From: an uncultured Maricaulis sp.
Lineage (GTDB): Bacteria > Pseudomonadota > Alphaproteobacteria > Caulobacterales > Maricaulaceae
Assembly: GCF_963975345.1 (NCBI RefSeq)
Contig: NZ_CAXBGE010000012.1
Coordinates: forward strand, 8,210 to 72,209
Length of the DNA: 64,000 bases
Direction: 5' to 3'
The notes beneath the pieces were generated by a model. That model was given only the letters and a program-made list of their open reading frames with translations, was not told the DNA's origin and made no database searches. The translations under genes and the position numbers were made by a program. Shown here piece after piece: positions 44,694 to 59,842 of the stretch; the stretch's first letter is position 1; each line of letters begins with the position of its first letter.

Positions 44694-44768
44694 TGGCTGG
44701 GGCGCCAGGATTCGAACCTGGGAATGCCGATACCAAAAACCGGTGCCTTACCACTTGGCGACGCCCCA
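44694..44768 (-). tRNA. tRNA-Gln (anticodon UUG)
   Basis: TGGGGCGTCGCCAAGTGGTAAGGCACCGGT-TTTTGGT-ATCGGCATTCCCAGGTTCGAATCCTGGCGCCCCAGCCA forms a cloverleaf with a GTTCGAATC T-loop. Very close to E. coli tRNA-Gln. Confidence 0.95.
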
Positions 44769-45037
44769 ACCGGGTCCGCCATCTGCGACGGAGCCGGCTA
44801 GATACCGAGTCGGGCGAGCGGATGCAACGGCGCAATGCGGTGACTGCGCGGCGCATTTGCAGCACGTCCCGCACCATTGCCATCATTCTCCCAATTTGCA
44901 GGTCGGGCTCACAGGCCCGCGACATACCGCCACGTTGAGCTGATGCCCTGATTGGAAGGTAGGGCGGGAGGTTGGATTGGGCTGAATTTCCCGCGTTGCA
45001 CGGCCTGCGTGAGTTGGATATAAGCCGCGCCTCGGTT

Positions 45038-45114
45038 CGGAGTATAGCTCAGCCTGGTAGAGCACCGTCTTCGGGAGGCGGGGGTCGCAAGTTCAAATCT
45101 TGCTACTCCGACCA
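45038..45114 (+). tRNA. tRNA-Pro (anticodon CGG)
   Basis: CGGAGTATAGCTCAGCCTGGTAGAGCACCGTC-TTCGGGA-GGCGGGGGTCGCAAGTTCAAATCTTGCTACTCCGACCA. Cloverleaf with encoded CCA. Confidence 0.95.
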
Positions 45115-45298
45115 TCTTCCCCGCCCCTGCCAACATGCCTCCTGCGACAGCTGTGCATCGCATTCAACGACCCGGGGACGTGCGCGCTGCCAATCCCTCA
45201 CCCCTGTCCCGTCGCGGCACTCTATCAAGGGTCTGGACAGGACCGCTTCTTGCACGGATTGTCCGGTCAACCGCATACCCGGTTTGGAAGGACCCTCG

Positions 45299-47083
45299 AT
45301 GAAACAGTTCTGGATTACATTTTTTGGTTCGATATTCGGCGTCGTCGTCGGCTCGGTCCTGGCCGTCATACTCGCCGCCTTCCTGATCGTCGGGATGCTG
45401 GCCTCGGCTGTTTCAGGGTCAACATCCCCGACCACCCTGCCCGGTAGCAGCACGGTGCTGGAACTGGACCTGCGCGCCGAGCGCCTCGATTCGCCGTCCC
45501 GCTCCCCCTTCGCCTTCAGCGAACCGCTCTCTGTGGTCGAGATTGTGCAGACCCTTGAACAGGCGGAATTCGATCCAGCTGTCCACGGCCTTTTCATTCG
45601 GGCCAATGAATTTGGCCTCTCGCCCGGCATGGCCGAGGAGATTCGCGATGCGATCGCCGATTTCCGCGCCTCCGGAAAATTCGTCATTACCCACGCTCAG
45701 GGATTCGAGGGCACATCGGTCACTGCCTATTTGGCGGTCGCGGGATCGGATGAGATCTGGCTGCAGGACACCGCCAGCTTCACACCCGCCGGCCTCGCGT
45801 CGGAAGTGCTCTTCCTCGGTGGCATGTTCGAACAGTTCAACGCCGAACCGCAATTCGAACAATTCTTCGAATTCAAGAATGCCGCCAATGTCTACACGCA
45901 GACCGGCTTCACCGACGCCCACCGCGAGGCGACGCTCTCCTACATGAATTCGATCTTCGATACGGCAATTGCCGATATTGCCAATGATCGCGACATCACG
46001 CCGGAAGCCTTGCGCAGCACGTTCGAAACAGCACCACATTCCGCCGAAGATGCCCTGGAACGCGGCCTGATCGACCATCTCGGCCATGTCATCGATGCGC
46101 GCGAGGCGGCACTGGCCCGCTCCGGCAGCGGATCGCAATTGCTTGCGATTGAAGCCTATCACTCGCTGCTCAACCCATCGAGCCGGGGACCGGCCATCGC
46201 CCTGATCGAAGGTCAGGGCGCGATCGTCACCGGCACCGCCAGCGCCAGTCCATTGGGCGGCGGTGGCGGCATCGGTAGCGACGCCATGTCCGAGGCCATT
46301 CTCGACGCAGCCAACGACACCTCGATCCGCGCGATCCTCATCCGGGTCGATTCGCCCGGAGGCTCGGCGATTGCTTCAGACCAGGTCTGGAATGCAATCG
46401 GGCGGGCCCGCGAGGCCGGCAAGCCGGTCATCATCTCGATGGCCTCGGTTGCCGCCTCGGGTGGATACTATCTGGCGGCACCAGCCGATTATATCCTCGC
46501 GCACGCCACGACCCTGACCGGTTCGATCGGGGTTCTTGGCGGCAAGGTCGCGCTGGAAGGCACGTTCGAGATGGCCGGCCTGCATTCGGAATCGGTCCAT
46601 GTCGGCGGCGATTACGCCACCGCCTTCTCCGGCCAGCAAAGCTGGACCGAAGCCCAAAGGGCGGCTTTCCGCGCCCAAATGGCCGATACCTATGACGACT
46701 TCACCCGCCGCGTCGCCGACGGCCGCGATCTGCCGCTCGAACGCGTGCTTGAAATCGCCCGTGGCCGGGTCTGGACCGGGGCGCAAGCGCTCGATCTGGG
46801 CCTGGTCGACGAGATTGGCGGTTTCCGCGATGCCGTCGATGCGACCAAACATCTGGCCGGCCTGGCGCCGGAGGACGATGTCCGCTTGGTCCGCTTCCCG
46901 CGTCAACAGACTCCGATCGAGGCTTTCTCGGCCCTGTTCGGCATGTCGGCCGAGACCGCCGAGACGGCAATCCGGGTGAATGCCGTGCTCGACCTGCCGG
47001 AGGTTCGGGCTGCGCTCGAAGCCCGCTCGCAAATCGGCTCGGGTCAGATTCAATTGCGCAGCACGGCACCACAGCCGGATTGA
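45299..47083 (+). CDS. sppA: signal peptide peptidase SppA, 67K type
   Basis: N-terminal TM helix and two ClpP/crotonase-like domains. SMASVAASGGYYLA (catalytic Ser) and GRVWTG. Confidence 0.85.
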   Translation: MKQFWITFFGSIFGVVVGSVLAVILAAFLIVGMLASAVSGSTSPTTLPGSSTVLELDLRAERLDSPSRSPFAFSEPLSVVEIVQTLEQAEFDPAVHGLFIRANEFGLSPGMAEEIRDAIADFRASGKFVITHAQGFEGTSVTAYLAVAGSDEIWLQDTASFTPAGLASEVLFLGGMFEQFNAEPQFEQFFEFKNAANVYTQTGFTDAHREATLSYMNSIFDTAIADIANDRDITPEALRSTFETAPHSAEDALERGLIDHLGHVIDAREAALARSGSGSQLLAIEAYHSLLNPSSRGPAIALIEGQGAIVTGTASASPLGGGGGIGSDAMSEAILDAANDTSIRAILIRVDSPGGSAIASDQVWNAIGRAREAGKPVIISMASVAASGGYYLAAPADYILAHATTLTGSIGVLGGKVALEGTFEMAGLHSESVHVGGDYATAFSGQQSWTEAQRAAFRAQMADTYDDFTRRVADGRDLPLERVLEIARGRVWTGAQALDLGLVDEIGGFRDAVDATKHLAGLAPEDDVRLVRFPRQQTPIEAFSALFGMSAETAETAIRVNAVLDLPEVRAALEARSQIGSGQIQLRSTAPQPD

Positions 47084-47109
47084 TCGCTTTTATCGACTGA
47101 CCAGAATCA

Positions 47110-47141
47110 GGGGCCCGGAGCACATGCTGCGGGCCCCTTTT
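47110..47141 (+). terminator. rho-independent terminator after sppA
   Basis: GGGGCCCG-gagcacatgctg-CGGGCCCC-TTTT. Confidence 0.7.
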
Positions 47142-47159
47142 CATATTCGGCAAGCGCCC

Positions 47160-48404
47160 TCAGGCCGTCACCAGGCCGATGATCAGCAGCACGAACATGC
47201 CGATCGCGAGAATGAAGCCGTAGACCATGTCCATGAAGATCGTGCGCAATAGCGACGAGAATCGGCCGTGCCGGTAAACCACGCGATGGATCCGGTAGAG
47301 ATAATAATTTGACCACAACATAAAGCCGATCACGGCCGGGCCCGTCCCGACGACTGCGCCCAGCGCGAAAATAATGATGAAGCCGAAAAACAGTACCGAG
47401 TGAAAGTGAAGTGACACAACGAGGTGGTCGTAAAAGAAATAGCCCCGCTTGTAGAAATGCGTGATGGCCAGCAAGAGGGCGTAGATCGGCAGCAGACCGA
47501 ACATCAGGCGCGGCGCCCAGACCTGCATCGCGGCCAGCACCGAGGCTCCACCATCGTCAATGATGCGGTCCGCCTGGTCGGCCAAACGTCCGCGCAATTC
47601 GAGCGGGATTTCATCGACACCGCTGACCGCCAACGCGTTTGGCACGTCCGAGGCCGAATCTCCCGCAGCCTCGCGCGCCGCCTCCGGTGCCTGTTCCTGT
47701 ACCTGTTCCGGCAAGAGCGCCCCGCGAATCGCCCGTTTGAGCTCCTCGGCGTCCGGAACGCCATCATCCGGCGGTGCTTGCGTCGTCCCGGCTGCATCAA
47801 TCACAGGGACAAGCGCTTCGACACCGCGGTTCACCTGGTCGGTTATCGCGGCGCGTTGATCCGATGACAGGCCGCCTTGCGCCAATTGCGCATCCAGCTC
47901 CCCGTTCTGGAGCTGCTCTGTTACGGCGCCTGCTGCGTCGCGCGCGCCCATCGTCAGCAGCGGGGTCTCGGGATTGTCCTGAAAACTGTTGATCGCGAAA
48001 ACCAGCAGGAAGAAAAGAACGCTGGCGCTCAGATACAGCCGGAAGGGTGTGACGTAGCGCGCGCGCGCGCCGGACAGATATCGCCGTGTCAGCTTGCCGG
48101 GTTGGAACAAGAGCGGCGGCAGGGTTCGCCACAACCGCCCTTCAAGTCCAAACAAGCCATCAAGGATATCGAGCAGCAAATCGCCAATCGGCCGATGGAA
48201 GCTCTCGGCGACTTGGCCGCAACTATGACAAACGGGGCCAATCAGCTTGCTGCCGCAATTGCTGCAAAGGCCCGCAGGATAGGCCGGCTCGAAAGCCGAT
48301 GGCCGCCGACGCTTCTTGCGCTTCGACGCGTTGATCGCATCGCCGATCTCGTCACCGGCCGCCCCGCCGATGATCGCGTCTGTAATGCTGTCGCTACCTG
48401 CCAT
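47160..48404 (-). CDS. DUF3667-like zinc-ribbon membrane protein
   Basis: CSNCGSKLIGPVCHSCGQ zinc ribbon, FQPGKLTRRYLSGARARYVTPFRLYL, and several C-terminal TM helices. Confidence 0.6.
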   Translation of the reverse strand: MAGSDSITDAIIGGAAGDEIGDAINASKRKKRRRPSAFEPAYPAGLCSNCGSKLIGPVCHSCGQVAESFHRPIGDLLLDILDGLFGLEGRLWRTLPPLLFQPGKLTRRYLSGARARYVTPFRLYLSASVLFFLLVFAINSFQDNPETPLLTMGARDAAGAVTEQLQNGELDAQLAQGGLSSDQRAAITDQVNRGVEALVPVIDAAGTTQAPPDDGVPDAEELKRAIRGALLPEQVQEQAPEAAREAAGDSASDVPNALAVSGVDEIPLELRGRLADQADRIIDDGGASVLAAMQVWAPRLMFGLLPIYALLLAITHFYKRGYFFYDHLVVSLHFHSVLFFGFIIIFALGAVVGTGPAVIGFMLWSNYYLYRIHRVVYRHGRFSSLLRTIFMDMVYGFILAIGMFVLLIIGLVTA

Positions 48405-48474
48405 GAGCGGACCCCCGACCTTGCTCGATTGGTTTCAAGCTAAGTCGGGAGGCCCGCACCTGACAAGTGTCCGA

Positions 48475-50109
48475 TTATTCGGCTGCAGGCGTGCTGCGGT
48501 CGACATCGGCGAAGCAAAGATAACGCGTGCGATGGATGTCGGTGAGATTGTCGACCCAACCGGTCACCCGCGGGTTGACCAGGTTCTTGTTGACATAGAA
48601 GACCAGCGGAATGATCGGCATATCGTTGACCAGCATCTGCTCGGCCTCGGCCAGCAAACCGCCGCGCACTTCCAGATCCTGCTCCTGGTTGGCGCGCTCG
48701 ACCAGCGCGTCATACTCCGGGTTATTGTAGCGGGCATAATTCATCGGCACCGAACGGTATTCGCCGAGGAACAGGAAGTTATACGGATCGTTATAGTCGG
48801 CAATCCAGCCGCCATCGGCAATCTGGAAATCTCCAGCCCGCAGATTGTCATAATGAATCTGCGTGTCATTGACGATCAGCTCGGGCTGAACCCAATCAGC
48901 AATCGCTGACCAGTCATTCTGCACCACCGGAGCGACGCGTGGATTATCCCCGGTCGCCCGATAGGTATATTCGAAGCGGAACGGGTTGTCCGGGCCGTAG
49001 CCGGCCGCGACAAGAATATCGCGTGCCATGACGCGGCGCTGTTCCACCGGAATGTGAGCCCAGCTGGCTTCGACACCGCCCGGGTAATTGTCGATCCCCG
49101 GCGGCACCAGCGAATAGGCTGGCAGCTGCCCGGCGCGCAGGATTTCATTGGCGATGAAGTCGCGGTCAATCGCCATCCCGAGCGCATTACGAACCGCCGG
49201 GTCGGCGAATTGCTCTTGCGTCGTGTTGATGGAGAAATACACCGTGCCCATGAAGGGGTGGACCCGCACATAGTCAGGGATTTCCCGACGCAGGAATTCC
49301 ATCTGCTGTCCGGGGAACTCCATATTCAAATCGAGTTCGCCATTGCGTACTCGCCGGCCAGCCGCGCTATTGTCGACGGTTGGGTAGAAATACACTTCGT
49401 CAACGCAGCTGTCGGCATCGTCGTAGAAAAGCGGGTTGCGGCTGAGATGGACGAAATTATTCGTGCGCCAATCAATCAGCTTGTAGGGGCCATTGACCTC
49501 AATGTTTTCGGGACGAACCCACTCATCGCCGAATTGCTCCACGATGTGCCGCGGCAGCGGGAAAGTGGTGTAATGCGTCAACAGGCCAGGCAGATAGGGC
49601 GCCGGGTTGACCAGCCGGATTTCCAGCGTGTGCTCGTCAAGGGCATGAACGCCAATGGATTCAGGCGGCGCTTCGCCGCGGCTGGCCTCGGCAACGCCAA
49701 CGATGGGGTAAAGCAGGGAGACATACTGGGCCCCGGTTTCAGGATTGGAGATCCGGCGCCAGGCGAAGACGAAATCGTCGGCCGTGACCGGCACGCCATC
49801 AGACCAGAGAGCGTCGCGCAGATGGAAGGTCCAGACCAGACCGTCCTCGCTGACTTCCCAGCTCTCCGCCATGCCCGGGATCGGGTGGGCATCCGGGTCG
49901 TCGGTGAACAGACCGATGAACATGTCACCGATAATATTATTCTCCCAGGTACCGCTGGCCTTGTGCGGGTCGAGCGTGAGCGGTTCCGCGTTATTGCCAC
50001 GGTTGAGGACAATCTCACCGGTTGGTTCCGACTGGTTGCCGCCACAATTAACGAGCGCCAATGCTGCCACTGACATCAATATGGCTGACAGAATTTTATT
50101 GCGGGTCAC
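48475..50109 (-). CDS. ABC transporter substrate-binding lipoprotein, family 5 (Opp/Dpp type)
   Basis: Lipobox LALVNCGG. LTLDPHKASG, WSDGVPVTADDF and YNPEYD are typical of SBP_bac_5. Confidence 0.85.
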   Translation of the reverse strand: MTRNKILSAILMSVAALALVNCGGNQSEPTGEIVLNRGNNAEPLTLDPHKASGTWENNIIGDMFIGLFTDDPDAHPIPGMAESWEVSEDGLVWTFHLRDALWSDGVPVTADDFVFAWRRISNPETGAQYVSLLYPIVGVAEASRGEAPPESIGVHALDEHTLEIRLVNPAPYLPGLLTHYTTFPLPRHIVEQFGDEWVRPENIEVNGPYKLIDWRTNNFVHLSRNPLFYDDADSCVDEVYFYPTVDNSAAGRRVRNGELDLNMEFPGQQMEFLRREIPDYVRVHPFMGTVYFSINTTQEQFADPAVRNALGMAIDRDFIANEILRAGQLPAYSLVPPGIDNYPGGVEASWAHIPVEQRRVMARDILVAAGYGPDNPFRFEYTYRATGDNPRVAPVVQNDWSAIADWVQPELIVNDTQIHYDNLRAGDFQIADGGWIADYNDPYNFLFLGEYRSVPMNYARYNNPEYDALVERANQEQDLEVRGGLLAEAEQMLVNDMPIIPLVFYVNKNLVNPRVTGWVDNLTDIHRTRYLCFADVDRSTPAAE

Positions 50110-50238
50110 GGTTTCGGTCTCCCCTCCGAGGTCTCCAAGCGATTCACTGCCGCACTGTCTAACGCAACATCATCTACCGGTCGACACTTGCCGAGCGGTC
50201 GCGCATAGTCCGGTCAGGTTCTAGATATACTGGTGAAC

Positions 50239-50847
50239 ATGAATACGCGATTACTGATTCTTGTCGTTGCAGCTGGCTGGCCCTCGACGGCGCTGGCGCA
50301 GCCCCCCACCGCGCCGCTTGACGGCCTGTTCGCGTGCGAATCGGTCGTCGATGATGCCGCACGCCTGTCCTGCCTGGACGCCGCGGTCGCGGCGCTGCAC
50401 AGCGAAACCGCGAGCGGCAATGTAATTGCCGTACAGCGCGGCGAGGTCGAGGCGGCCGAGGAAGCGACGTATGGCCTGAGAATCCCCGGCTTGCGGCTGC
50501 CATCCCTGCCCCGCTTCGCCATACCACGCAGTGAGGCGAGCGACCTGGCTGCCGCCGAACAGACCACCCAGACCTCCGGTACGCATACCGTGGAGCGGGA
50601 CTCCAACGGCCAGATCGAGCGGATTGATCATCTGGCAATCACGGATATCCGCTTCAACCGCTCGCGGCGCGTCGTTGTGACGCTGGCCAATGGCCAGATC
50701 TGGCAACAGCTCGATTCCGATTCGACCCATATCGCGCGCAGTATCGAGGCCGACACCGGTGCCAGCATTCGCAGCGCGGCACTGGACTCTTACATGGTGA
50801 AAATCGGCGATAACGGGCGTTGGTTCCGCGCCCGGCGTACACAATAA
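50239..50847 (+). CDS. secreted hypothetical protein (tandem paralog 1)
   Basis: Signal peptide. N-terminal C-x7-DDAARLSCLD motif. C-terminus LANGQIWQQLD. Confidence 0.6.
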   Translation: MNTRLLILVVAAGWPSTALAQPPTAPLDGLFACESVVDDAARLSCLDAAVAALHSETASGNVIAVQRGEVEAAEEATYGLRIPGLRLPSLPRFAIPRSEASDLAAAEQTTQTSGTHTVERDSNGQIERIDHLAITDIRFNRSRRVVVTLANGQIWQQLDSDSTHIARSIEADTGASIRSAALDSYMVKIGDNGRWFRARRTQ

Positions 50848-50863
50848 TTCATTCGGGAGTAGA

Positions 50864-51568
50864 TTGATGATGACGTCACGCCTTGCCCTTATCGCCGCTG
50901 TCGCCGGGATCGCCATCCTGGCGCCGACAGCGGCGCTGGCCGATGATCCGATCGCGGACATCCTGGCCTGCCGCGCCGTCGAGCCGGTCGATGCCCGCCT
51001 CGCCTGTTTCGACGCCGCTGCTGAGGCGCTGGACACGTCCCATTCGAGCGGTGCCATCGTTACGGTGATGCGCGAGGATGTCGAGGCCGTCGAGCGCGAC
51101 AGTTTCGGCTTCTCCATGCCCTCCCTGCCCCGCTTCCGCATCCCGCTACTGGCGGGACGGGCCGAGGCCAATGTCCGCGACGCCAACACCCTGATCGCGG
51201 CAGCAGAAGCCGGCGGCGAGACTGCAGACGCCACGCCAACCCCCAACGCCGCAGCCCCGGCCGCCAGCGCACCGGTCAATGATGCCGCCACCGCCGCCGC
51301 GACCGATGTCCAAATTCTCGATCGTGGTTCAGACGGGAATGTCGACCGGGTCATGATGCAGATCGCGCGCACCCGCGTTGTTGGCTACAACACGACGATT
51401 TTTTACATGGAAAACGGCCAGGTCTGGCGCCAAACCGATGATCTTGCCGTCCGCATGCCACGGAACCTCGAGGGCGTGACGGCCGAAATCCGTCGCGGGG
51501 CCATGAGCAGCTTCCTGCTGCGCGTCAATGGCCGCGGACGCGCCATCGCCGTCGAGCGTCAACGCTAA
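50864..51568 (+). CDS. secreted hypothetical protein (tandem paralog 2)
   Basis: Signal peptide. C-x7-VDARLACFD, SLPRF and MENGQVWRQTD are colinear with paralog 1. Confidence 0.6.
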   Translation: MMMTSRLALIAAVAGIAILAPTAALADDPIADILACRAVEPVDARLACFDAAAEALDTSHSSGAIVTVMREDVEAVERDSFGFSMPSLPRFRIPLLAGRAEANVRDANTLIAAAEAGGETADATPTPNAAAPAASAPVNDAATAAATDVQILDRGSDGNVDRVMMQIARTRVVGYNTTIFYMENGQVWRQTDDLAVRMPRNLEGVTAEIRRGAMSSFLLRVNGRGRAIAVERQR

Positions 51569-51600
51569 AGCAACGGCCTGAGACCGCATTCAAACATGCA

Positions 51601-51630
51601 AAAGGGCCGCCCTGCCAGGCGGCCCTTTTC
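51601..51630. terminator. bidirectional rho-independent terminator (copy 1 of the island-flanking hairpin)
   Basis: AAA-GGGCCGCC-ctgcca-GGCGGCCC-TTTT. Confidence 0.75.
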
Positions 51631-51710
51631 ATTGACATGATCCGCGACCGGCCGCGATTGCGACCATGCCCCCGTTTTTTGAGGGCTATTTCACACAGAC
51701 CGGCTATCCG

Positions 51711-51840
51711 ATGGGGGCGCAAGACGGGCTGACCGCGCAGGAGGCAGGCACAGGGCAAAGCCTGGTTCCAGGCCGCCGTGGCCGGCCCAGGCGGAACGCG
51801 CCAGGGTGAGGCGCGCTAATTAGTGAGTGTCCCCGTTTTT
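51711..51840 (-). repeat. ~130-bp repeat ending in a GGGGACACTCAC terminus (copy 1)
   Basis: Colinear with 52409-52537 at roughly three quarters identity by eye. Ends ...GGTGAGGCGCGCTAATTAGTGAGTGTCCCCGTTTTT. Confidence 0.75.
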
Positions 51841-52030
51841 CGCAGGCATAGGCATCATTGGAGACGTTGCGCGTGGCGATCTGACCGGCCGGATTATAGG
51901 TAAAGCTGGTGGTCAGATCGCTGGTCGTGCCGGGCAGGTTGTGCGCCAGCGTCTGCAAGCGCGTGACGCTGTTGAACGCATAGCTCGTGGTGACGCCAGT
52001 ACCGCGCGTGATCGAGGTGCGGCGGCCCTG
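51841..52030 (-). pseudogene. orphan rhs core fragment (YD-repeat region), truncated at both ends
   Basis: Translates to QGRRTSITRGTGVTTSYAFNSVTRLQTLAHNLPGTTSDLTTSFTYNPAGQIATRNVSNDAYA. This is about two-thirds identical by eye to residues encoded at about 54.35-54.55 kb of the intact rhs gene. It abuts repeat termini on both sides. Confidence 0.8.
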
Positions 52031-52037
52031 TTAATGC

Positions 52038-52236
52038 GTGCCTGTCACCATTTATTTATGGGAACTTTCCACAAAACCCCCAATCTGAGCATGCCTCAAG
52101 CTGCCGTTTCCGCGTCTGCGACCATCCACGCGCGTAAAGAGAGTCGCACCAGCTTGCACCAACCCTCCGGGCGCTGGAGCTCCGCAAGCGCCGATTGCTG
52201 CCGGAACGATTTCTTCGGGTAAATGGTGACAGGCAC
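52038..52236. repeat. MITE-like unit bounded by 17-bp inverted repeats GTGCCTGTCACCATTTA
   Basis: GTGCCTGTCACCATTTA at 52038-52054 and its reverse complement TAAATGGTGACAGGCAC at 52220-52236. Confidence 0.7.
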
Positions 52237-52306
52237 CATTTGTGGAAGGTCAGTCACCCAAAAGTAGAACCTGTATCAGGGTCACGGCTAATGCAGCGTT
52301 GAAATA

Positions 52307-52328
52307 GGTGCCTGTCACCATTTATTTT
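52307..52328 (+). repeat. solo copy of the GGTGCCTGTCACCATTTATT motif
   Basis: Exact GGTGCCTGTCACCATTTATTTT. Confidence 0.8.
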
Positions 52329-52380
52329 GGGGTGCGGAAATTGTGGATGTCCCCGGTTTACGTTTTTTCGTTTCATAGTG

Positions 52381-52400
52381 GGTGCCTGTCACCATTTATT
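52381..52400 (+). repeat. solo copy of the GGTGCCTGTCACCATTTATT motif
   Basis: Exact GGTGCCTGTCACCATTTATT, directly abutting the second 130-bp repeat. Confidence 0.8.
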
Positions 52401-52408
52401 ATTTATTC

Positions 52409-52537
52409 TTGGGGGCGCCGGACTGGTTGGACGCACTGGAGGCGAGCACGGGGCAAACCCCGACTCCGGGGCGCCGTGGCCGACCCAGGCGGGATGCGAA
52501 AGGGTGAGGCGCGCTAAATGGTGTGTCCCCGATTTTT
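52409..52537 (-). repeat. ~130-bp repeat ending in a GGGGACACACC terminus (copy 2)
   Basis: Colinear with 51711-51840. Ends ...GGTGAGGCGCGCTAAATGGTGTGTCCCCGATTTTT, 25 bp from the stop of the putative immunity gene. Confidence 0.75.
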
Positions 52538-52561
52538 CACCTTCTAATTCTTTACCAACCT

Positions 52562-53077
52562 TTACTGCGTCGATTCACTCAATTTTGCGGTCGCCTTCGT
52601 CCGAATATATATAAATGGATAGGTAATCGGTGCTACCATTACCATTACGAAACAAATGATCTGATCTATTAAAGGGTTAGTGAGCCTTACAATTTCATTT
52701 AACAATAGACGTCTACTGGAAATCCAAACCAAATAGAAAGTAACGAAGGGGCCGAAAATTTTTGCTTTCTCGTGGATATTTGTCGCCAAGCCACCATAGG
52801 AAACTGAGCTAAAGGCACCAACAAGGACGATAAATGTAAATGAGGCGAGGGACACAATTTCCAATAGCGAAATTATCGGCCCGAAATCGACCTTGGCCCT
52901 CCATCTAATCATCAAATATGGGATCAAAATTAATGTCGACGTCATGACCACTTTAGATGTGGCGCTAAGTGCCCGATCAAGAAGAACATCGCTGGACGTG
53001 CTGACATCCCCGCCAGCAAAGAAAGCTGCCACAATGAAAACATAGAAAGTTACAGGGTGCGTTAGCATTCTTCTCAT
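52562..53077 (-). CDS. polytopic membrane protein, putative cognate immunity protein of the Rhs C-terminal domain
   Basis: About 171 aa with about 5 hydrophobic helices (VTFYVFIVAAFFAGG, VVMTSTLILIPYLMI, IISLLEIVSLASFTFIVLVGAF, IFGPFVTFYLVWI, IICFVMVMVAPITYPFIYI). Strongly AT-rich compared with the flanks. ATG 53075-53077 overlaps the rhs stop 53074-53076 (ATGA). Confidence 0.65.
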   Translation of the reverse strand: MRRMLTHPVTFYVFIVAAFFAGGDVSTSSDVLLDRALSATSKVVMTSTLILIPYLMIRWRAKVDFGPIISLLEIVSLASFTFIVLVGAFSSVSYGGLATNIHEKAKIFGPFVTFYLVWISSRRLLLNEIVRLTNPLIDQIICFVMVMVAPITYPFIYIRTKATAKLSESTQ

Positions 53078-56000
53078 TCCGAGGCTCCACAATCATACGT
53101 TAGACTAACGCTAACACCGAAACCTAGCGCAGCGGCAAAACTAACATTTGGGGCAACGCTGTTTGAGGTTACCCACGGCGCGCCATCCAGTGGACCACGT
53201 GGCGCGAGCGCACTCGGTCCTGTGTACATCCTCTGCTCCATTGCAGGAACCCCAGCCCGCAGCAAGAAGTCCACGGCATCTGTTGGCATTGGTGCGCTAA
53301 CCGACCTGGAAGTTGTACGTGTGCCCAAGTCGAGAAAATCAACACCACTAATGCCGAACGACGCGGATGCTCCTTGCGTATATGAAGCAGTGCTCGAAGC
53401 CAAATCGGCCCGGTAAGTACCCGCGTCAAAAAGACCTCCAAGAGCGAGACCTTCATAATTTCCTTGGAGCGCAATTTGAGCCCCCAGCGAAAACTCGAAC
53501 TTGGTTTGGTAGCAATTGGTTTGATCGTCGCTATCTCGCGCCCCACGGCTGTTGCCATTATTCTCGCGAGGAAAGCTCCCACGATCACCTCGGCCAGATC
53601 TGACCCATAGACTACCCATAAACGAACCCCAACTCCAACGACCTCCTGTCACAGTGAAACAGCCGCCGATACCGTCGCATACATCGAGCCCCATCGGATC
53701 CACCAAATTCACAGGATCCCCACCCACATAAGCATAGATATTCATGCCCCCAGCCTGACCGATCGGATCGGTCTGCATGAACCGCCCAAGCCGGGGATTA
53801 TAGGCGCGGTTCTTGTAGTGATAAAGGCCGGTCTCTTCCAGCCAGACCTGGCCGGTATAGCCATAGCGGCCACTATTGGAGGCGCCGGGCATGCCGTATT
53901 CGTCATAGGTATTCGTATTGGCGGCGTCCCCGAACTGATTGGTGCGCGCCACAATTGACCCCCGCTCGTCGGCGATCAGCCAGAGCCGCATGCTGGTCCC
54001 GGAGCCGGCATATTCCACCAGCGGTTCGTCGGTGCCAGGGCCATGAACATAACGGCGTTGCAGCACGTGACTGCTATTGTATTCGGCGATCATATCGACG
54101 CCGTCATACTGAAAACGCACGTCCGGCGCCGTGCCGGTCAGCTGCACCAAACGGCCGAGCGGATCATAGCTCAGTGTCACCCCGCCGGAGACCGAGGTCA
54201 GCCGGTTGAGATAATCATAGCCGAAAGTGCGGACGCCATCGCCGGTCATATTGCCGCGACCGTCATAGGTCGGCGCGCTTTGGCCGGTAACGCTCGTGAT
54301 CTGATTGAGGCCATTGGTGCCGTAGAGTAGATCCAGATTGACATGCCCGGTCCAGGCGAAGGCGTCATTGGACGCGGTCCGGCTGGTGATCTGACCGGCC
54401 GGGTTATAGGCATAGGTCACCGTCAGATCGTCACTGGTTCCAGTCAGATTCTGTGTCAGGCTTGCGAGCCGCGAAGCGGAATCGAAAGTATAATTGGTGG
54501 TGACGCCATTGCCGCGCGTAATTGAAGTGCGACGGCCCTGATTGTCATAGCTGTAGGTCGCCAACACCCCATAGCCGGACGAGGCACCATTTTCACGGAC
54601 CGCCGTGACGGCGCCAGCCGTATTATGGTCGTATTTGACGTAGAAGCCGTCGGGCCAGGTGATCCGGGAGCGGTGTCCTGCTGCGTCATATTGATAGGAC
54701 ACCGCGCCATCACCGCCAGTCTGTTGAGTGAGGCGCCCCAGAGCATCATAGCTATTGCTGATCGATTGGGAGCTGGTAGCGACACTCAAAACCCGACCCA
54801 GCAGATCATAGGTGTAGTCCGTGTCGATCGTGGTACCGGGTGCGTTGACCTGGGTGACGCGGCCAAGATTGTCATAGGTGTAGAAGAATTGCTGGTCGCT
54901 CCGCACCCGCCGATTGGCGAGACGGCCATAGACATCATAGGTATAGATCTCGTCATCACTGCCCGTATTGGTGCCCGGCGTGGTCGGGCTGGGGTATTCA
55001 ATCGAGGCGAGCCGGTCGAAACCGTCGCGCAGATACTGGGTGCGATTGCCTTCGCCATCGGTCAGGCTGACCAGCTGGCCATTATTGCTGTAGGCGCGCG
55101 TTGCCTCAACGATGGCGCCCGCCGTGGCATAGCCGCTGGTCGTGGTCGCGACCCGACCAACCGCATCATAAGTGTTGCGGGTGATCCGGTCCGGCCCGTA
55201 GGAGCCGGTTGTGGCCAGTGTGCAGGCCGAGCTGGGCGGTGAGGCCCAGTTGGCGGCATTCATCCTTTGGGCGACGCAATCAATCCGTCCCGCATTGTCG
55301 TAAGAATACTGGATCATCGCCTGCACCGAACTGGCTCCGGTGATCAGCCGCGCCTGGGTGGCACGTCCGCCGGCGTTGTAAACGACCTCCTGCCGGTCGA
55401 TCAGGCTGAAGGCGGACCACGCCGCATCAGACTGGCTGGTCACCGTGCCAAACTCGACCTTGGTGGGCAGGCCATCGGAATTATAGGTGGTGCGCTGGGC
55501 GGGGTACAGCAAGGCGCCGGCGCCGTCCGGATCGGGCCCGACCTGGCCGATCAATTGACGCCCATTGTCATAGCGATAGCGCGTCGTATCGGCGGTGCCC
55601 GCAAGTGGGCCATCGACCGTCAGCAGATTGCTGACATGGTCATAGGTCATCGTCGTGGTTGTCACCAAAGTTGTGTTGCCAGCTTGGGCGGTTGCCGTGA
55701 CGGGCAGGAGATTATTGGCGACACCGGTCGCGCCATAGGTGACGATTGTGAGCTGCTCATTGGTCGTGCCGATACAGCCCGCCGTCGCCGTGCCACTGGA
55801 GCAGGTCGATGATTGGGTCGGCAGATAGACCGGGCTGGCCGCCTGGATGATGCTCGCGGAGGTGCGTTTGTACCAAGCGTAGAGCGCGGTGTAAGTGATC
55901 CGCGTCTGTGGCCGGCTGCCACTGCCGGACGGGGCCGGTGAGGTCGCGGTCAGCATGCCGCCATGGGTGGCATCATAGGTGAAATCGGTCACATTTCCGG

Positions 56001-57351
56001 CCGCATCGGTCACTGAGCTCGGCTGGTTGCAGGTGCGCACATTTGTGCAGCTCGCCGGATAGGCGGTGCTGGTGACAATATCGGCCAGGCCCGAGCCGGA
56101 CTTGGCGACCTGGCGCACCAGCGTGACATTGCTGCGGCTGTCATAGGTGTAATTGGTATAATTGCCTTCAGGCGCCGTCACCCGGGTTAGACGTCCACCG
56201 GTGTCATAGGTGTAAGTGGTGCGATTGCCGTAGCCATTCTGAGACGCCACGACGCGGCCGGTCGCAATCTCACTCTCGGTGATCGAGACGCGCGAGGTCG
56301 TGTCGGTAAACGTCGTCGTGCGGATACCCGCGGCATCGGCATAGGCATAGGTGCCGCCACCGCCACCGGCAATCCAGACCGAACTGACACCATAGGCGCC
56401 ATAACCAATCGAGACCTGCGGCGAGATATCGCCGGGGCCATAAACGGCGGTCAGACGGCCATATTGATCGCGCACATATTTGGTCGCCCGTGACAGCGTG
56501 TCGTAGAAGGTGCGCTCACTATAGGTCGAATAGATCGTTTCACCGATGATGAGGTTGGGCCAAGTCTGCGTTAAACCGGTGCATGAAATGGCGGTCGGCG
56601 CGCAATAATCAACGGCGTTATTGATCAGCCTCGCCTGGGTAACGCGGTACCAGGACGAAAAATCACCGACATCATTCATCGTATTGAGCGCATAATTGAG
56701 ATGCAGTTGATAGCCGGTATTGGTCGTGACCGATTGCAGCCGGTAATAAGGATCGGAGAGAACGTATTCTGGTTCATACCGGTTGAATCCAACCTGTATG
56801 AGATACGCGCCTTGCCGATAATGATACGTCAGTGTGAAGCCGTTCGGGCGCGTGACCGTGTGAAGCAAGGCCAAGCTGGCACCATAGGTGCGTGTCGTCG
56901 CCACATAGGACGCCAGAAACACCGCCACCGTCCCGTCGCCGAGCGTGTAGGTATAAGTGCCGAACGTTTTGGTGAGCGTCGATTGGCTGGCGTATTTTGG
57001 TGTATAAGTGCTGCCGCTCACCGTAAACAATTCGCTCGAACCACCGATGAATACCGTGATCTCATTGTTGAGCGGATTCTGATCGATGCCACCGACCACA
57101 CTGTGCCGCCAGGCATTGCCCACGAAGACCTGGGAATAGCTCAAACCACCCGAACCGGGATTACCGATCGTGATCACGGGTGAATTGTTCACCGAGGCTC
57201 CTGAGGGCAGGTTGACGCCGTTGGCATCGATGTTCGGATTGACGATCGGGACGGCCTGGTCGGGCGGCGTTTGCGCGACAGCGCTCGCGTTGAAGAAAAA
57301 TATGAGGCTGGCCGTTACAATTGCAGCAAACAAAGTCGACAAGGCGCGCAT
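53074..57351 (-). CDS. RHS repeat protein with Sec-type signal peptide and a variable C-terminal (toxin) domain
   Basis: ATG 57351 is preceded by GGAGGA. Signal MRALSTLFAAIVTASLIFFFNASAVAQ. Many YD repeats (YxYDxxGRL/V). RHS core end GRYGYTGQVWLEETGLYHYKNRAYNPRLGRFMQTDPIG...GGDPVNLVDPMGL, then a 203-aa tail. Confidence 0.9.
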   Translation of the reverse strand: MRALSTLFAAIVTASLIFFFNASAVAQTPPDQAVPIVNPNIDANGVNLPSGASVNNSPVITIGNPGSGGLSYSQVFVGNAWRHSVVGGIDQNPLNNEITVFIGGSSELFTVSGSTYTPKYASQSTLTKTFGTYTYTLGDGTVAVFLASYVATTRTYGASLALLHTVTRPNGFTLTYHYRQGAYLIQVGFNRYEPEYVLSDPYYRLQSVTTNTGYQLHLNYALNTMNDVGDFSSWYRVTQARLINNAVDYCAPTAISCTGLTQTWPNLIIGETIYSTYSERTFYDTLSRATKYVRDQYGRLTAVYGPGDISPQVSIGYGAYGVSSVWIAGGGGGTYAYADAAGIRTTTFTDTTSRVSITESEIATGRVVASQNGYGNRTTYTYDTGGRLTRVTAPEGNYTNYTYDSRSNVTLVRQVAKSGSGLADIVTSTAYPASCTNVRTCNQPSSVTDAAGNVTDFTYDATHGGMLTATSPAPSGSGSRPQTRITYTALYAWYKRTSASIIQAASPVYLPTQSSTCSSGTATAGCIGTTNEQLTIVTYGATGVANNLLPVTATAQAGNTTLVTTTTMTYDHVSNLLTVDGPLAGTADTTRYRYDNGRQLIGQVGPDPDGAGALLYPAQRTTYNSDGLPTKVEFGTVTSQSDAAWSAFSLIDRQEVVYNAGGRATQARLITGASSVQAMIQYSYDNAGRIDCVAQRMNAANWASPPSSACTLATTGSYGPDRITRNTYDAVGRVATTTSGYATAGAIVEATRAYSNNGQLVSLTDGEGNRTQYLRDGFDRLASIEYPSPTTPGTNTGSDDEIYTYDVYGRLANRRVRSDQQFFYTYDNLGRVTQVNAPGTTIDTDYTYDLLGRVLSVATSSQSISNSYDALGRLTQQTGGDGAVSYQYDAAGHRSRITWPDGFYVKYDHNTAGAVTAVRENGASSGYGVLATYSYDNQGRRTSITRGNGVTTNYTFDSASRLASLTQNLTGTSDDLTVTYAYNPAGQITSRTASNDAFAWTGHVNLDLLYGTNGLNQITSVTGQSAPTYDGRGNMTGDGVRTFGYDYLNRLTSVSGGVTLSYDPLGRLVQLTGTAPDVRFQYDGVDMIAEYNSSHVLQRRYVHGPGTDEPLVEYAGSGTSMRLWLIADERGSIVARTNQFGDAANTNTYDEYGMPGASNSGRYGYTGQVWLEETGLYHYKNRAYNPRLGRFMQTDPIGQAGGMNIYAYVGGDPVNLVDPMGLDVCDGIGGCFTVTGGRWSWGSFMGSLWVRSGRGDRGSFPRENNGNSRGARDSDDQTNCYQTKFEFSLGAQIALQGNYEGLALGGLFDAGTYRADLASSTASYTQGASASFGISGVDFLDLGTRTTSRSVSAPMPTDAVDFLLRAGVPAMEQRMYTGPSALAPRGPLDGAPWVTSNSVAPNVSFAAALGFGVSVSLTYDCGASE

Positions 57352-57406
57352 CGTAAGTCCTCCGGATTCAGCTCTGGATAGGTGACATTTCAGGAAGGAA
57401 CAGCGC

Positions 57407-57607
57407 TCAGGCGCCGGTCGTCTTCTTCTCGATGCGATTGCCGGCATCGTCATACGTATAATCCGTCGTGACGCCGTTATTGACCGAGCCGGAATGGACA
57501 ACCTTGATAACGCGGCCATGTGCGTCATAGGTATAAGTCACTGTCTCGGATGCGAAAGCAGGTGCGGACAACGTCAACGCCCCTGCCAGAACCAATAACA
57601 ATCTCAT
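57407..57607 (-). CDS. small secreted YD-repeat protein (66 aa)
   Basis: Signal MRLLLVLAGALTLSAPAFA, then TYTYDAHGRVIKV...DYTYDDAGNRIEK (two YD units). Lies 55 nt upstream of rhs on the same strand. Confidence 0.6.
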   Translation of the reverse strand: MRLLLVLAGALTLSAPAFASETVTYTYDAHGRVIKVVHSGSVNNGVTTDYTYDDAGNRIEKKTTGA

Positions 57608-57941
57608 GCGAGCCCCCTGCCCTATCGAGACCCACCGCCAAATTCTCGACGGGTGTGTCATCCAAAAACGTCACCAAAAGTTGCGCGAAACAACTCATCA
57701 ATGCACGCTAGGGGTGATCGTAAACACAATCGACAAATTCAATCAACACGGAAATTTTATCCAGGCCACCCGCTAAGCGTTTACCCTTGCGCAACCAAGA
57801 GAATCCTATCGCAAAAACTTGCATCTCACGCCTATCCAACTTGAAAATGTCGGGCGTAAACGGATGACAATGGCCCATCCCACCTGGCCAGCGGCGCCGT
57901 CAGTGCACTGCCCAAACCCGCAAGCCACCCCCGATTCGCAC

Positions 57942-57974
57942 AAAAAAAGGGCCGCCCTTCCAGGCAGCCCTTTT
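57942..57974. terminator. bidirectional rho-independent terminator after the oppC-like gene (copy 2 of the island-flanking hairpin)
   Basis: AAAAAAA-GGGCCGCC-cttcca-GGCAGCCC-TTTT. Near-identical to 51601-51630. Confidence 0.75.
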
Positions 57975-58001
57975 GATCTAGCGATGGAGTGTGTCTGCCC
58001 G

Positions 58002-58910
58002 TCAGCGATCCTTCGGGTCGATCGCGTCGCGCAGACCGTCACCGATGAAGTTGAGGCAAAACAGCGTCAGCATCATTGTCACGGCCGGCACGATCAGCGT
58101 CCACGGCGCGACTTCCATGTCCTGGGCACCAGCAGAGATCAGGCGGCCAAGCGATGTCAGCGGCTCCTGCACCCCAAGACCGAGAAAGCTCAAAAAGCTC
58201 TCGGCCAGAATGACGACCGGGATCATCAAGGTCACATAGACGACGACCGGACCGAGCACGTTGGGAATGATGTGACGCTGGATGATCATCCATTGCGACA
58301 CGCCGGCGGCTTCGGCCGCTTCAACGAATTCCATCCGTTTGAGGGCAATGGTCTGACCGCGCACGATCCGCGCCATCGTCAACCATTCCACGGCGCCGAT
58401 GGCGACGAAGATCAGGATGATATTACGCCCGAACACGACCATCAGGATGATGACGAAGAAAATGAAGGGCAGGGAATACATGATATCGACGAAGCGCATC
58501 ATCACCTGATCGACCCGGCCGCCGATAAAGCCGGCGGTCGCGCCCCAAGTGACGCCGATCACCAGTGAGACGATGGTGGCGACAATGCCGACCATCAAGG
58601 AGACGCCGAGCCCGACCAGGGTTCGCGCCACCATGTCACGGCCTTGCGCGTCAGTGCCGAAGAGGTGCCAGTTTTCAAACGTGGGCGGCACCCAGACTTC
58701 GTCACGATAAATCGTGTCGTAGTCATGCACCCAGACACCCATCTGGCCGAGGACTGCCAGCACGATCAGCGTCCCGAGCACGATCAGACTGACCAGCGCT
58801 GCCTTGTTGCGCAACAGACGCGCGCGCGCATCCTCCCAGAGCGAGCGGCCTTTGACTGCGGCCGTCTCGATCAGCGCAGCCTTGTCATCCGGTGTTGAAA
58901 TCGTTGACAT
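58002..58910 (-). CDS. ABC transporter permease (OppC/DppC type)
   Basis: 6 TM helices. Binding-protein-dependent EAA-type loop FVEAAEAAGVSQWMIIQRHIIPN. Confidence 0.85.
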   Translation of the reverse strand: MSTISTPDDKAALIETAAVKGRSLWEDARARLLRNKAALVSLIVLGTLIVLAVLGQMGVWVHDYDTIYRDEVWVPPTFENWHLFGTDAQGRDMVARTLVGLGVSLMVGIVATIVSLVIGVTWGATAGFIGGRVDQVMMRFVDIMYSLPFIFFVIILMVVFGRNIILIFVAIGAVEWLTMARIVRGQTIALKRMEFVEAAEAAGVSQWMIIQRHIIPNVLGPVVVYVTLMIPVVILAESFLSFLGLGVQEPLTSLGRLISAGAQDMEVAPWTLIVPAVTMMLTLFCLNFIGDGLRDAIDPKDR

Positions 58911-59842
58911 TATTCGTACTTCACCTTCGGATTGAGGACGCCATAGAGCAGGTCCGCGACCAGGTTAAGGACGATGATCAGGCTGGCGTAAATAATCACG
59001 ACGCCCATCACCAGCGTGTAGTCGCGCTGCAGCGCCGCATCGACGAAATGCTTGCCGATCCCGGGCAGTTGGAACACGACCTCGATCACCAGCGAACCGG
59101 AGATCAGCGCCGCGGACGCAGGTCCAAGATAGCTGACGAGCGGCAAAATCGCCGAGCGCAAGGCATGGCGCACGATCACCGCCGGCGGCGACAATCCCTT
59201 GGCCCGCGCGGTGCGGATATAATTGGAGCGCAGCACTTCGATCATGCTGGCGCGCATCAGGCGGGCAATAATCGCGATCTGCGGCAAAGCGAGCGTGATC
59301 ACAGGCAGGATCAAGCGGTCCACTGTCATCCCCAGCCTCGGATCGAGACCGCCAGTTGGCAGCCATCCCAGATAGAGACCGAAGAACAGCGCCAGGATTG
59401 GGCCCGACACGAAGGGCGGAATGGAAATCCCGACCATCGCGAACGTCATCACGGCAAAATCGCCGCTGGTGTTCTGCCGCAGGGCGGCAACCGAACCGAG
59501 GAAAGAGCCGGCGAATACGGCCAGGATCATCGAAGAAATGCCGATTGTGGCGCTGACCGGAAAGCCTTCGCTCAGGATCTCGGCAACGTCCTTGTCCCGG
59601 ACTTTCAGGGATGGTCCCAGATCGCCGTGGAACAGATTGCCCATGTAATCAAGGAATTGCCGCCAGACCGGCTGGTCCATGCCATAGCGCGAGAGCAGAA
59701 GCTGGCGCGTCTCGTCCGGCATGGGGCGTTCAAGGTCGAACGGCCCGCCTGGAGCGGCGTGCATCATGAAAAACGCGACCGCAATGATCACGAGAATCGT
59801 GGGGATGGCGATTAGAACTCGCCTGAAAATAAAACCAAACAT
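58910..59842 (-). CDS. ABC transporter permease (OppB/DppB type)
   Basis: MFGFIFRRVLIAIPTILVI N-terminus. YIRTARAKGLSPPAVIVRHALR EAA loop. Confidence 0.85.
   Translation of the reverse strand: MFGFIFRRVLIAIPTILVIIAVAFFMMHAAPGGPFDLERPMPDETRQLLLSRYGMDQPVWRQFLDYMGNLFHGDLGPSLKVRDKDVAEILSEGFPVSATIGISSMILAVFAGSFLGSVAALRQNTSGDFAVMTFAMVGISIPPFVSGPILALFFGLYLGWLPTGGLDPRLGMTVDRLILPVITLALPQIAIIARLMRASMIEVLRSNYIRTARAKGLSPPAVIVRHALRSAILPLVSYLGPASAALISGSLVIEVVFQLPGIGKHFVDAALQRDYTLVMGVVIIYASLIIVLNLVADLLYGVLNPKVKYE

Follow-up and report, generated by a model that had tools for sequence, protein, structure and literature searches.

A putative toxin–immunity cassette of an undescribed family at the tip of an Rhs protein from an uncultured Maricaulis sp.

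Introduction

Rhs/YD systems generally share a set of features: YD repeats, a core that ends in DPxGL, a compositional break, a coupled small downstream open reading frame (ORF) and an rhs relic. All of these are found in a 64,000-nucleotide stretch from an uncultured Maricaulis sp. (RefSeq assembly GCF_963975345.1, contig NZ_CAXBGE010000012.1; the whole stretch is hereafter called the window), where an rhs gene ends in a tail of 203 amino acids (aa) and overlaps a 171-aa ORF. Uncharacterised Rhs tips are common. Unlike described Rhs systems, the tip and partner analysed here fall in no described toxin or immunity family. Judged from sequence comparison, the tail and the 171-aa protein probably form a toxin–immunity cassette of an undescribed family, with probable action at the cell envelope.

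A well-described system of similar layout is Tse5 (RhsP1, PA2684)/Tsi5 of Pseudomonas aeruginosa. Both loci combine an Rhs shell with a non-enzymatic-looking tail that is released, in the window by prediction, after the core motif. Tsi5 is an integral inner-membrane immunity protein, as is predicted for the partner in the window. The Rhs core of the window matches that of Tse5 (8cp6, E 6e-20), with no sequence similarity beyond the core. The pore activity of Tse5-CT was correctly predicted from its membrane immunity protein Tsi5 and the absence of enzyme motifs (PMC9637101). Differences can also be observed. Tse5-CT is hydrophobic, with predicted transmembrane (TM) and amphipathic helices (PMC9637101), whereas the window tail contains no TM-like segment and is predicted to be mostly β. 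Tsi5 has 2 TM regions, compared with 5 in the window partner. Tse5 is delivered through PAAR and a type VI secretion system (T6SS), while the window Rhs carries a predicted Sec signal peptide.

The ionophore CdiA-CT toxins from contact-dependent growth inhibition (CDI) systems hit the inner membrane from the periplasm, and small multi-pass immunity proteins block them in the bilayer (PMC11630599). Pore-forming colicins and pyocins share this pairing of a membrane toxin with a polytopic immunity protein, both with the CDI ionophores and, by prediction, with the window cassette. Colicin-type toxins fold into bundles of helices that include a hydrophobic hairpin, and CDI ionophores are five-helix bundles, but the window tail has neither. 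Pfam and PDB searches returned no sequence or profile relation of the tail to colicins, pyocins or CDI ionophores.

A different type of channel is represented by Tse4, which forms ion-selective channels (PMC12169545) and for which AlphaFold2 (AF2) modelling suggests a β-barrel resembling Ntox25 (PMC11630599). Ntox25 is described as 'mostly beta', is present in α-proteobacteria and has an FGPY signature motif; its carriers are listed with filamentous haemagglutinin repeats (PMC3482391), whereas the window carrier has RHS repeats. Neither the window tail nor that of its only relative (see below) matches Ntox25 in Pfam at E up to 10, a search that covers this family only if Pfam-A includes the model, and FGPY is absent. 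To our knowledge, Tse4/Ntox25-like proteins are the only precedent for a β-structured interbacterial ion-channel toxin.

Results

The Rhs carrier and the cassette junction

The tail-bearing gene lies on the minus strand, which the first-pass annotation of this DNA, read from the letters and their translations, had not given. Its likely true start is the ATG at position 57351; among the in-frame starts, it is the first to have a ribosome-binding site (GGAGGA), and it opens onto the predicted Sec signal peptide (Table 1). The 1425 aa encoded from there are the same as in NCBI entry WP_339748540.1, 'RHS repeat-associated core domain-containing protein [uncultured Maricaulis sp.]'. A copy on a 1.23-Mb contig from Tara Oceans, a marine metagenome survey, differs by 3 residues, and 2 metagenome contigs in the European Nucleotide Archive (ENA; L001 and L002) are 99.9% identical at the DNA level to window positions 44716-54897.

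The protein contains RHS repeats (Pfam RHS_repeat, E 8.5e-34, 10 stretches; TIGR01643, 9e-24) and the Rhs-associated core (TIGR03696 Rhs_assc_core, E 4e-23, residues 1208-1281 of the 1484-aa ORF). The end of the core reads ...TDPIG...GGDPVNLVDPMGL and is followed by the tail, DVCDG...CGASE*. Solved Rhs structures in the PDB align with the window Rhs shell only as far as DPMGL.

The composition of the DNA changes at the same point. The GC content (guanine plus cytosine) of the tail is 54.6%, compared with 59.2% in the core, and the GC content at third codon positions (GC3) is 0.47, compared with 0.70. Over stretches of 40 codons, GC3 falls from ~0.72 to ~0.45, and the step coincides exactly with codon ~1222, which is the DPMGL motif. 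The neighbouring genes have a GC3 of 0.66-0.79 against 0.47 for the cassette. The lower GC content that the first-pass annotation had noted for the tail is therefore borne out, and it has a sharp boundary. The locus is built like a standard polymorphic Rhs toxin, with DPxGL as the junction at which a cassette was acquired.

The shell of the carrier has its own characteristics. Of the 12 Cys residues of the protein, 8 lie in the Rhs core, each close to a partner (250/257, 435/441, 517/526 and 692/710); conservation of 2 of these pairs can be seen in the homologue from Joint Genome Institute (JGI) metagenomes that is described below. This pattern suggests a disulfide-stabilised, extracytoplasmic Rhs shell, unlike the cytoplasmically assembled Rhs effectors of the T6SS. 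A disulfide-bonded, exported Rhs protein fits the sequence, since the core Cys are paired and a signal peptide is present. The signal peptide contains no Cys, so the protein is not a lipoprotein. No PAAR/prePAAR or VgrG domain was found in the Rhs protein, for which a Pfam search of the whole sequence returned only RHS_repeat. Sec-dependent Rhs toxins have been listed as a 'T2SS' class (Zhang et al., PMC3482391), and by its predicted signal peptide the window carrier belongs to this class and not to the T6SS class.

A coupled and co-inherited membrane partner

The start of the 171-aa ORF overlaps the Rhs stop codon as ATGA. The ORF encodes five hydrophobic segments, and all loops between them are about 19 aa or shorter. 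Its position, the ATGA coupling and its co-conservation with the tail make it the putative immunity protein of the tail. The homologous tail is accompanied by a 166-aa ORF that shares only 21% identity with the 171-aa ORF, with collinear segments. Both have five hydrophobic segments and a high grand average of hydropathy (GRAVY; 0.80 and 0.93). The global alignment score of the two (z=5.8) was reached by 0/1000 block-preserving shuffles, indicating homology beyond composition and layout.

Neither membrane ORF matched a known family in Pfam (including E up to 10), NCBIfam, PADLOC or PDB sequence and profile searches. Weak matches at chance level (DUF3667, 0.061; 60KD_IMP, 0.032) were confined to TM stretches. 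The window contains no further copy of the tail or of the immunity gene, and promoter and terminator scans around the cassette remained at chance level.

One divergent relative in sequence databases

The tail matched no known family. Neither tail had a match at E up to 1 in Pfam or NCBIfam, or at E up to 10 in Pfam; PADLOC gave no match, and over the tail and the membrane ORF PHROGs gave a single match at chance level (E 0.32). PDB sequence and profile searches with the tail, as well as tblastn against plasmids and against phages, were also without a match. Scans of 185,579 species-representative genomes and of viral contigs gave no match to the tail. JGI metagenomes yielded no match in a protein-guided scan or in a scan with the degenerate DNA pattern for EQxMYxGPxALAP, which matches all known copies of the tail.

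When 1.84 billion cluster representatives were scanned exhaustively with HMMER, exactly one relative emerged, P0002 (P0002/P0006), with an E-value of 1.3e-23 and 39% identity over tail residues 46-199. The first-pass annotation had proposed a search for other carriers of the tip; the one that was found is an Rhs C-terminus too, positioned directly after DPLGL in a protein from JGI metagenomes. Tails of this type are present on four JGI contigs (L003, L005, L006 and L007), and in every copy the 166-aa ORF begins within one nucleotide. The GC gradient of the homologous locus is alike, with 58% in the core, 52% in the tail and 43% in the membrane ORF. The two Rhs proteins share 57-90% identity along the core, with 90% over its last 40 residues; at the motif this drops to ~30%, and beyond it the values are 28-48%. 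The sharp junction, the lack of a library or structure match and the divergent relative at the same Rhs position sustain the initial view of the tail as an exchangeable toxin tip of an undescribed family.

The homologous loci are only partly intact. The rhs gene of one copy runs off its contig at a length of at least 940 aa. On L005 (3801-4948), the homologous rhs is truncated on its 5' side by an element of the insertion sequence (IS) family IS3 (HTH_Tnp_1 and rve). L003 (3046-4908) holds only an Rhs fragment of ~530 aa, located downstream of a gene for VasI, which is T6SS-associated, and an HNH/RNase_T pair; the core of this fragment keeps the same paired Cys. The second family member thus appears mostly in rearranged or orphan form.

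A word-indexed search of 5.8 billion proteins, with the tail and the two-tail alignment as queries, gave no match. This negative is unreliable, because the cluster representative P0004 carries the same tail and yet was not returned. The tail query also missed P0005, an NCBI protein with the same tail, and a 50%-identity library missed the query's own protein. Clustering on the long Rhs core masks the tips, and therefore the number of two lineages is a lower bound and the negative searches understate the spread of the family.

Tip exchange in the Rhs lineage of the window is illustrated by an Rhs protein encoded on a plasmid of Sphingomonas aerolata (NZ_CP098765.1, L004), which has 43% core identity, a different tail and a 75-aa partner. 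The tail of this protein (L004 5762-6588) is Gly/Ala-rich and hydrophobic (...AGGLTAAGSAAMLNPAGVLIGGEIVAAGATLGAAGRLLTGVGGVTAIAGG...), and the 75-aa ORF overlaps it. It resembles a glycine-zipper-type membrane toxin and adjoins the conjugation genes VirB2/3/4.

Composition, conservation and predicted structure of the tail

The tail has the composition that the first-pass annotation reported, with no His, one Lys and a high content of Gly (29), Ser (24) and Ala (22). Together the three small residues make up 36.9% of the tail, compared with 28.4% of the core and 26% of the neighbouring genes. Four Cys residues (positions 3, 9, 58 and 199) are present, as had been stated, but only three of them are near an end.

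We reject the lack of His as a distinguishing trait of the tail. While the tail is indeed free of His, it mirrors the composition of the whole Rhs protein, which is His-poor. The core contains 0.98% His and 0.65% Lys, and on these frequencies no His (P=0.13) and at most one Lys (P=0.62) are expected often enough. The absence of His is unusual only against the neighbouring genes (P=0.006). A stronger statement can be made from the two-tail alignment: the two members have not a single conserved His or Lys in common, and the three His of the homologue align with non-His residues.

This absence excludes, for the family as a whole, His-dependent chemistries (HNH, HExxH and the deaminase HxE/PCxxC), Cys-His and Ser-His-Asp hydrolases and the HR motif of colicin M. 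On the two sequences, most of the chemistry of nucleases, proteases, amidases, lipases and deaminases is ruled out. The invariant positions include 4/4 Cys, 7/9 Pro and 7/14 Asp, together with E64, Y91, R92, R127, R143, E150, Q151, Y154 and W171.

All four segments that had been quoted for their alternating hydrophobicity, KFEFSLGAQIALQG, LALGGLFDAG, ASASFGISGV and NVSFAAALGFGVSVSLTY, are present in the tail. Binary alternation of hydrophobic and polar residues forms runs of 23 and 18 residues. Only 0.2% of shuffles reach 23, and the longest run in the 1222-aa, all-β Rhs core is 12. This part of the earlier observation is significant in the window tail; the corresponding β-moment and the homologue do not bear it out (see below).

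The AF2 model of the tail contains predicted strands at residues 59-77, 80-94, 99-112, 119-130 and 180-197 and a helix at 137-154. The loop at 148-178 is modelled without confidence, though it is the best-conserved segment and rich in Pro. A β-rich reading of the tail is plausible but weakly supported, because the model has low confidence and no Foldseek match.

Two membrane-related motifs were considered and rejected. A glycine zipper (GxxxGxxxG) occurs once per tail, at positions that do not align and in a polar context. A C-terminal β-signal like that of outer-membrane proteins is not present, since the last residue is aromatic in neither tail.

Mode of action

The envelope or membrane is the indicated target because the partner ORF is co-inherited, translationally coupled and almost fully buried in the membrane, and because the carrier is Sec-exported by prediction and Cys-paired and the Cys residues of its tail are conserved. 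The membrane targeting suggested in the first-pass annotation is thus indirectly supported by the co-conserved polytopic ORF and by the conserved Cys of a Sec-exported protein. Its β-barrel or pore reading is not supported as stated, given the low-confidence model, the lack of a fold match, the mixed alternation statistics and the polar conserved block.

A possible sequence of events can be proposed. Recombination at the conserved DPxGL junction would have placed the cassette on a native rhs core. The tail would be enclosed in the Rhs shell and released by aspartyl autoproteolysis at DPMGL. Its folding may take place in the oxidising periplasm and involve two disulfides, one of C3 with C9 and one of C58 with C199 that would clasp the domain. 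From the periplasmic side, the tail may then attack the cytoplasmic membrane. Most likely, long amphipathic β-hairpins would insert and dissipate the membrane potential without catalysis. In the producer, the immunity protein, itself embedded almost completely in the membrane, would neutralise the tail there.

We favour a membrane-inserting, non-catalytic depolariser, a reading that includes the general envelope model and that we place slightly short of probable. Its most specific form, a disulfide-stapled β-structured pore or ionophore that Rhs delivers to the inner membrane and that the five-helix immunity protein blocks in the bilayer, is tentative and rather unlikely taken by itself.

A number of results weigh against the depolariser. 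The Eisenberg β-moment of the tail is not beyond chance (p 0.13-0.5), and in the sole homologue the alternation runs are 10 and 8 residues long and not significant. Neither tail contains a segment of TM-helix grade: the maximum 19-residue Kyte-Doolittle mean is 1.52 in the window and 1.43 in the homologue, with none at or above 1.6. The best-conserved block is a polar helix followed by a Pro-rich loop (D136, D139, R143, E150, Q151, Y154, W171 and five Pro), which fits an active or binding site at least as well as a pore and resembles such a site more than a surface turned towards lipid. The AF2 prediction has a mean predicted local distance difference test (pLDDT) score of 34 from the single sequence and is still of low confidence with the two-sequence alignment of residues 50-203 (pLDDT 52, predicted template-modelling score (pTM) 0.39). 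With this model, Foldseek gave nothing beyond generic sheet-plus-helix matches at chance level, in the PDB (best E 0.07, template-modelling (TM) score <=0.29) as in BFVD (TM score <=0.33). A scan of the neighbouring genes on both sides of rhs showed an ABC transporter and unrelated proteins and no T6SS family, nor any secretion or delivery machinery. Finally, only two lineages are known, which makes arguments from conservation thin. Taken together, these results do not establish a pore over an enzyme.

The strongest competitor is a periplasmic enzyme with carboxylate (Asp/Glu) chemistry whose substrate is anchored in the membrane, such as lipid II, undecaprenyl-linked precursors, membrane-adjacent peptidoglycan, or phospholipid or lipopolysaccharide intermediates. 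The 5-TM protein would then bind the toxin at the membrane surface, or shield or alter the substrate. The conserved polar and Pro-rich stretch is consistent with this possibility: it comprises P134, D136, A137, D139, F140, R143, A144, P147, A148, E150, Q151, M153, Y154, G156 and P157 and continues through ALAP, P165, G168 and PWV. Further invariants are E64, D87, Y91, R92 and D94, and half of the Asp residues are invariant despite an overall identity of 39%. The tail is not hydrophobic (GRAVY -0.16) and lacks a TM-like segment, and its conserved Cys are compatible with a folded periplasmic domain.

Some colicin M-like bacteriocins that degrade lipid II likewise come with polytopic membrane immunity proteins. 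The colicin M motif is DxYDx5HR, and it is absent from the tail, which is free of His. No enzyme family was matched in Pfam, NCBIfam or the PDB (E up to 10) and no fold was matched, while the immunity protein has almost no exposed surface with which to cap an active site. We consider an enzyme of this kind doubtful.

Cytoplasmic action on nucleic acid, nucleotide or protein through a novel fold, with the membrane ORF as an unusual immunity protein or unrelated, is improbable. It is true that the majority of characterised Rhs tails are cytoplasmic enzymes and that novel folds are common among them. However, the coupled and co-conserved partner is wholly membrane-embedded, the carrier has a predicted Sec signal and paired Cys, and the four Cys of the tail are invariant. 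The lack of conserved His or Lys is contrary to most nucleases, deaminases and NTP-using enzymes. ADP-ribosyltransferase, NADase and nuclease profiles were unmatched; for ADP-ribosyltransferases and NADases, which are defined by an R-S-E or H-Y-E catalytic triad in an ART fold, this covers Pfam, NCBIfam and the PDB, and a fold search, made with the low-confidence model, was also without a match.

Least probable of all is that the tail is no working toxin but decaying or non-toxic cargo, or a structural appendage, drifting in a rarely used rhs locus: its extreme rarity (two lineages) and the decay nearby (the rhs relic and repeat elements downstream, and the IS-truncated and fragment copies of the homologue) would fit, but the full-length ORF is intact, with an identical NCBI record, a near-identical Tara copy and matching ENA contigs, and selection rather than drift is indicated because two lineages at 39% identity keep the frame, the length, all Cys, 7/9 Pro and the coupled partner.

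Surroundings of the cassette

The rhs island (~51.6-57.5 kb) contains additional elements on the downstream side of the cassette (Table 1). The relic of another rhs core has 63% identity to residues 938-1000 of the intact Rhs and would mark an older rhs 3' module that was decayed or displaced downstream.

An exact sequence of 17-18 nt, (G)GTGCCTGTCACCATTTA, is present in four copies within 360 bp (52038+, 52220-, 52308+ and 52382+), where 0.09 are expected by chance. The spacer downstream of the immunity-like ORF is AT-richer, and in it the copies (window 52038-52398) are arranged as perfect inverted pairs. They could represent an array of protein-binding sites or the ends of a miniature mobile element. 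A GC-rich direct repeat of ~125 nt occurs twice in the window (51712-51839 and 52410-52537), with 77% identity between the copies. One copy begins right after the stop of the 171-aa ORF and the other right after the rhs-core relic. This arrangement suggests that successive rhs-tip cassettes have a 3' boundary element in common.

The ENA contigs L001 and L002, from two samples, both begin at window position 54897, and ~43 nt around 54591-54633 are missing from them. The aligned pieces overlap by 9 nt at this gap, and gene calling yields no more than a 497-aa Rhs fragment there. The gap is either a frameshifting deletion in the population or an assembly break in repeat DNA (~2.9x coverage).

The flanks of the island (window 47160-59842) carry opp-like permease genes on one side and ORFs without family matches on the other. 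The island may have been inserted close to an oligopeptide-transport operon.

Table 1 Features of the rhs island and its flanks, in window coordinates.
Feature	Position	Strand	Details
Rhs ORF	53074..57528	minus	Open reading frame back to 57528
Rhs/YD-repeat polymorphic toxin gene	53074..57351	minus	1425 aa from ATG 57351
Predicted Sec signal peptide MRALSTLFAAIVTASLIFFFNASAVAQ	57271..57351	minus	Read from translation
DPMGL, canonical autoproteolysis motif at the end of the Rhs-associated core; cassette junction	53686..53700	minus	
Rhs tail after DPMGL, 203 aa	53685..53077	minus	
Tail residues 1-57, poorly conserved Gly/Arg/Trp-rich linker with conserved Cys-loop (C3...C9)	53515..53685	minus	Two-tail alignment
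Tail residues 58-199, candidate conserved toxin domain bracketed by conserved C58 and C199	53089..53514	minus	Alignment to P0002, low-confidence AF2 model, alternation runs
Putative cognate immunity gene, 171 aa	52562..53077	minus	Five hydrophobic segments, GC 43%
Relic of another rhs core, 63 aa, truncated on both sides	51842..52030	minus	tblastn E 9e-19
opp-like ABC permease genes, one flank of the rhs island	58002-59842	minus	
Two ORFs without family matches, other flank of the rhs island	50233-51568	plus	
Gene aligning to the SBP_bac_5-called gene of L001	48475-50109	minus	
tRNA-Gln and tRNA-Pro	44694-45114		

Discussion

The kind of system found in the window, an Rhs polymorphic toxin with an immunity gene, is already known; by sequence comparison, its tip and partner are new to the described families. 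The nearest analogues in function are Tse5-CT/Tsi5, pore-forming colicins, CDI ionophores and, as a β-type precedent, Tse4/Ntox25, and the tail agrees with none of them in sequence or in hydrophobic helical segments. The claim that the tail contains no known toxin domain has held in Pfam, NCBIfam, PDB and PADLOC, and neither Pfam nor AlphaFold with Foldseek gave a confident match to a known toxin. The case also shows that clustered protein databases conceal polymorphic toxin tips: the identical full-length protein is in the collection and yet was not retrieved by a query with the tip.

Rhs tips are a reservoir of antibacterial activities. A new tip with a membrane-embedded immunity protein is a candidate for a new route to breach the cytoplasmic membrane or to hit membrane-bound envelope synthesis. 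The pair is small (a core domain of ~145 aa and a partner of 171 aa), has clear boundaries and comes with a divergent second member. Should the tail be an enzyme, it would represent a His-independent, envelope-targeting fold. If it forms a β-type pore in the inner membrane, the structural repertoire of bacteriocin-like ionophores would be wider, and the tail would found a new class of interbacterial membrane toxins, unrelated to colicin-type toxins, glycine zippers and Ntox25 and carried by a Sec-dependent Rhs protein of a stalked marine alphaproteobacterium.

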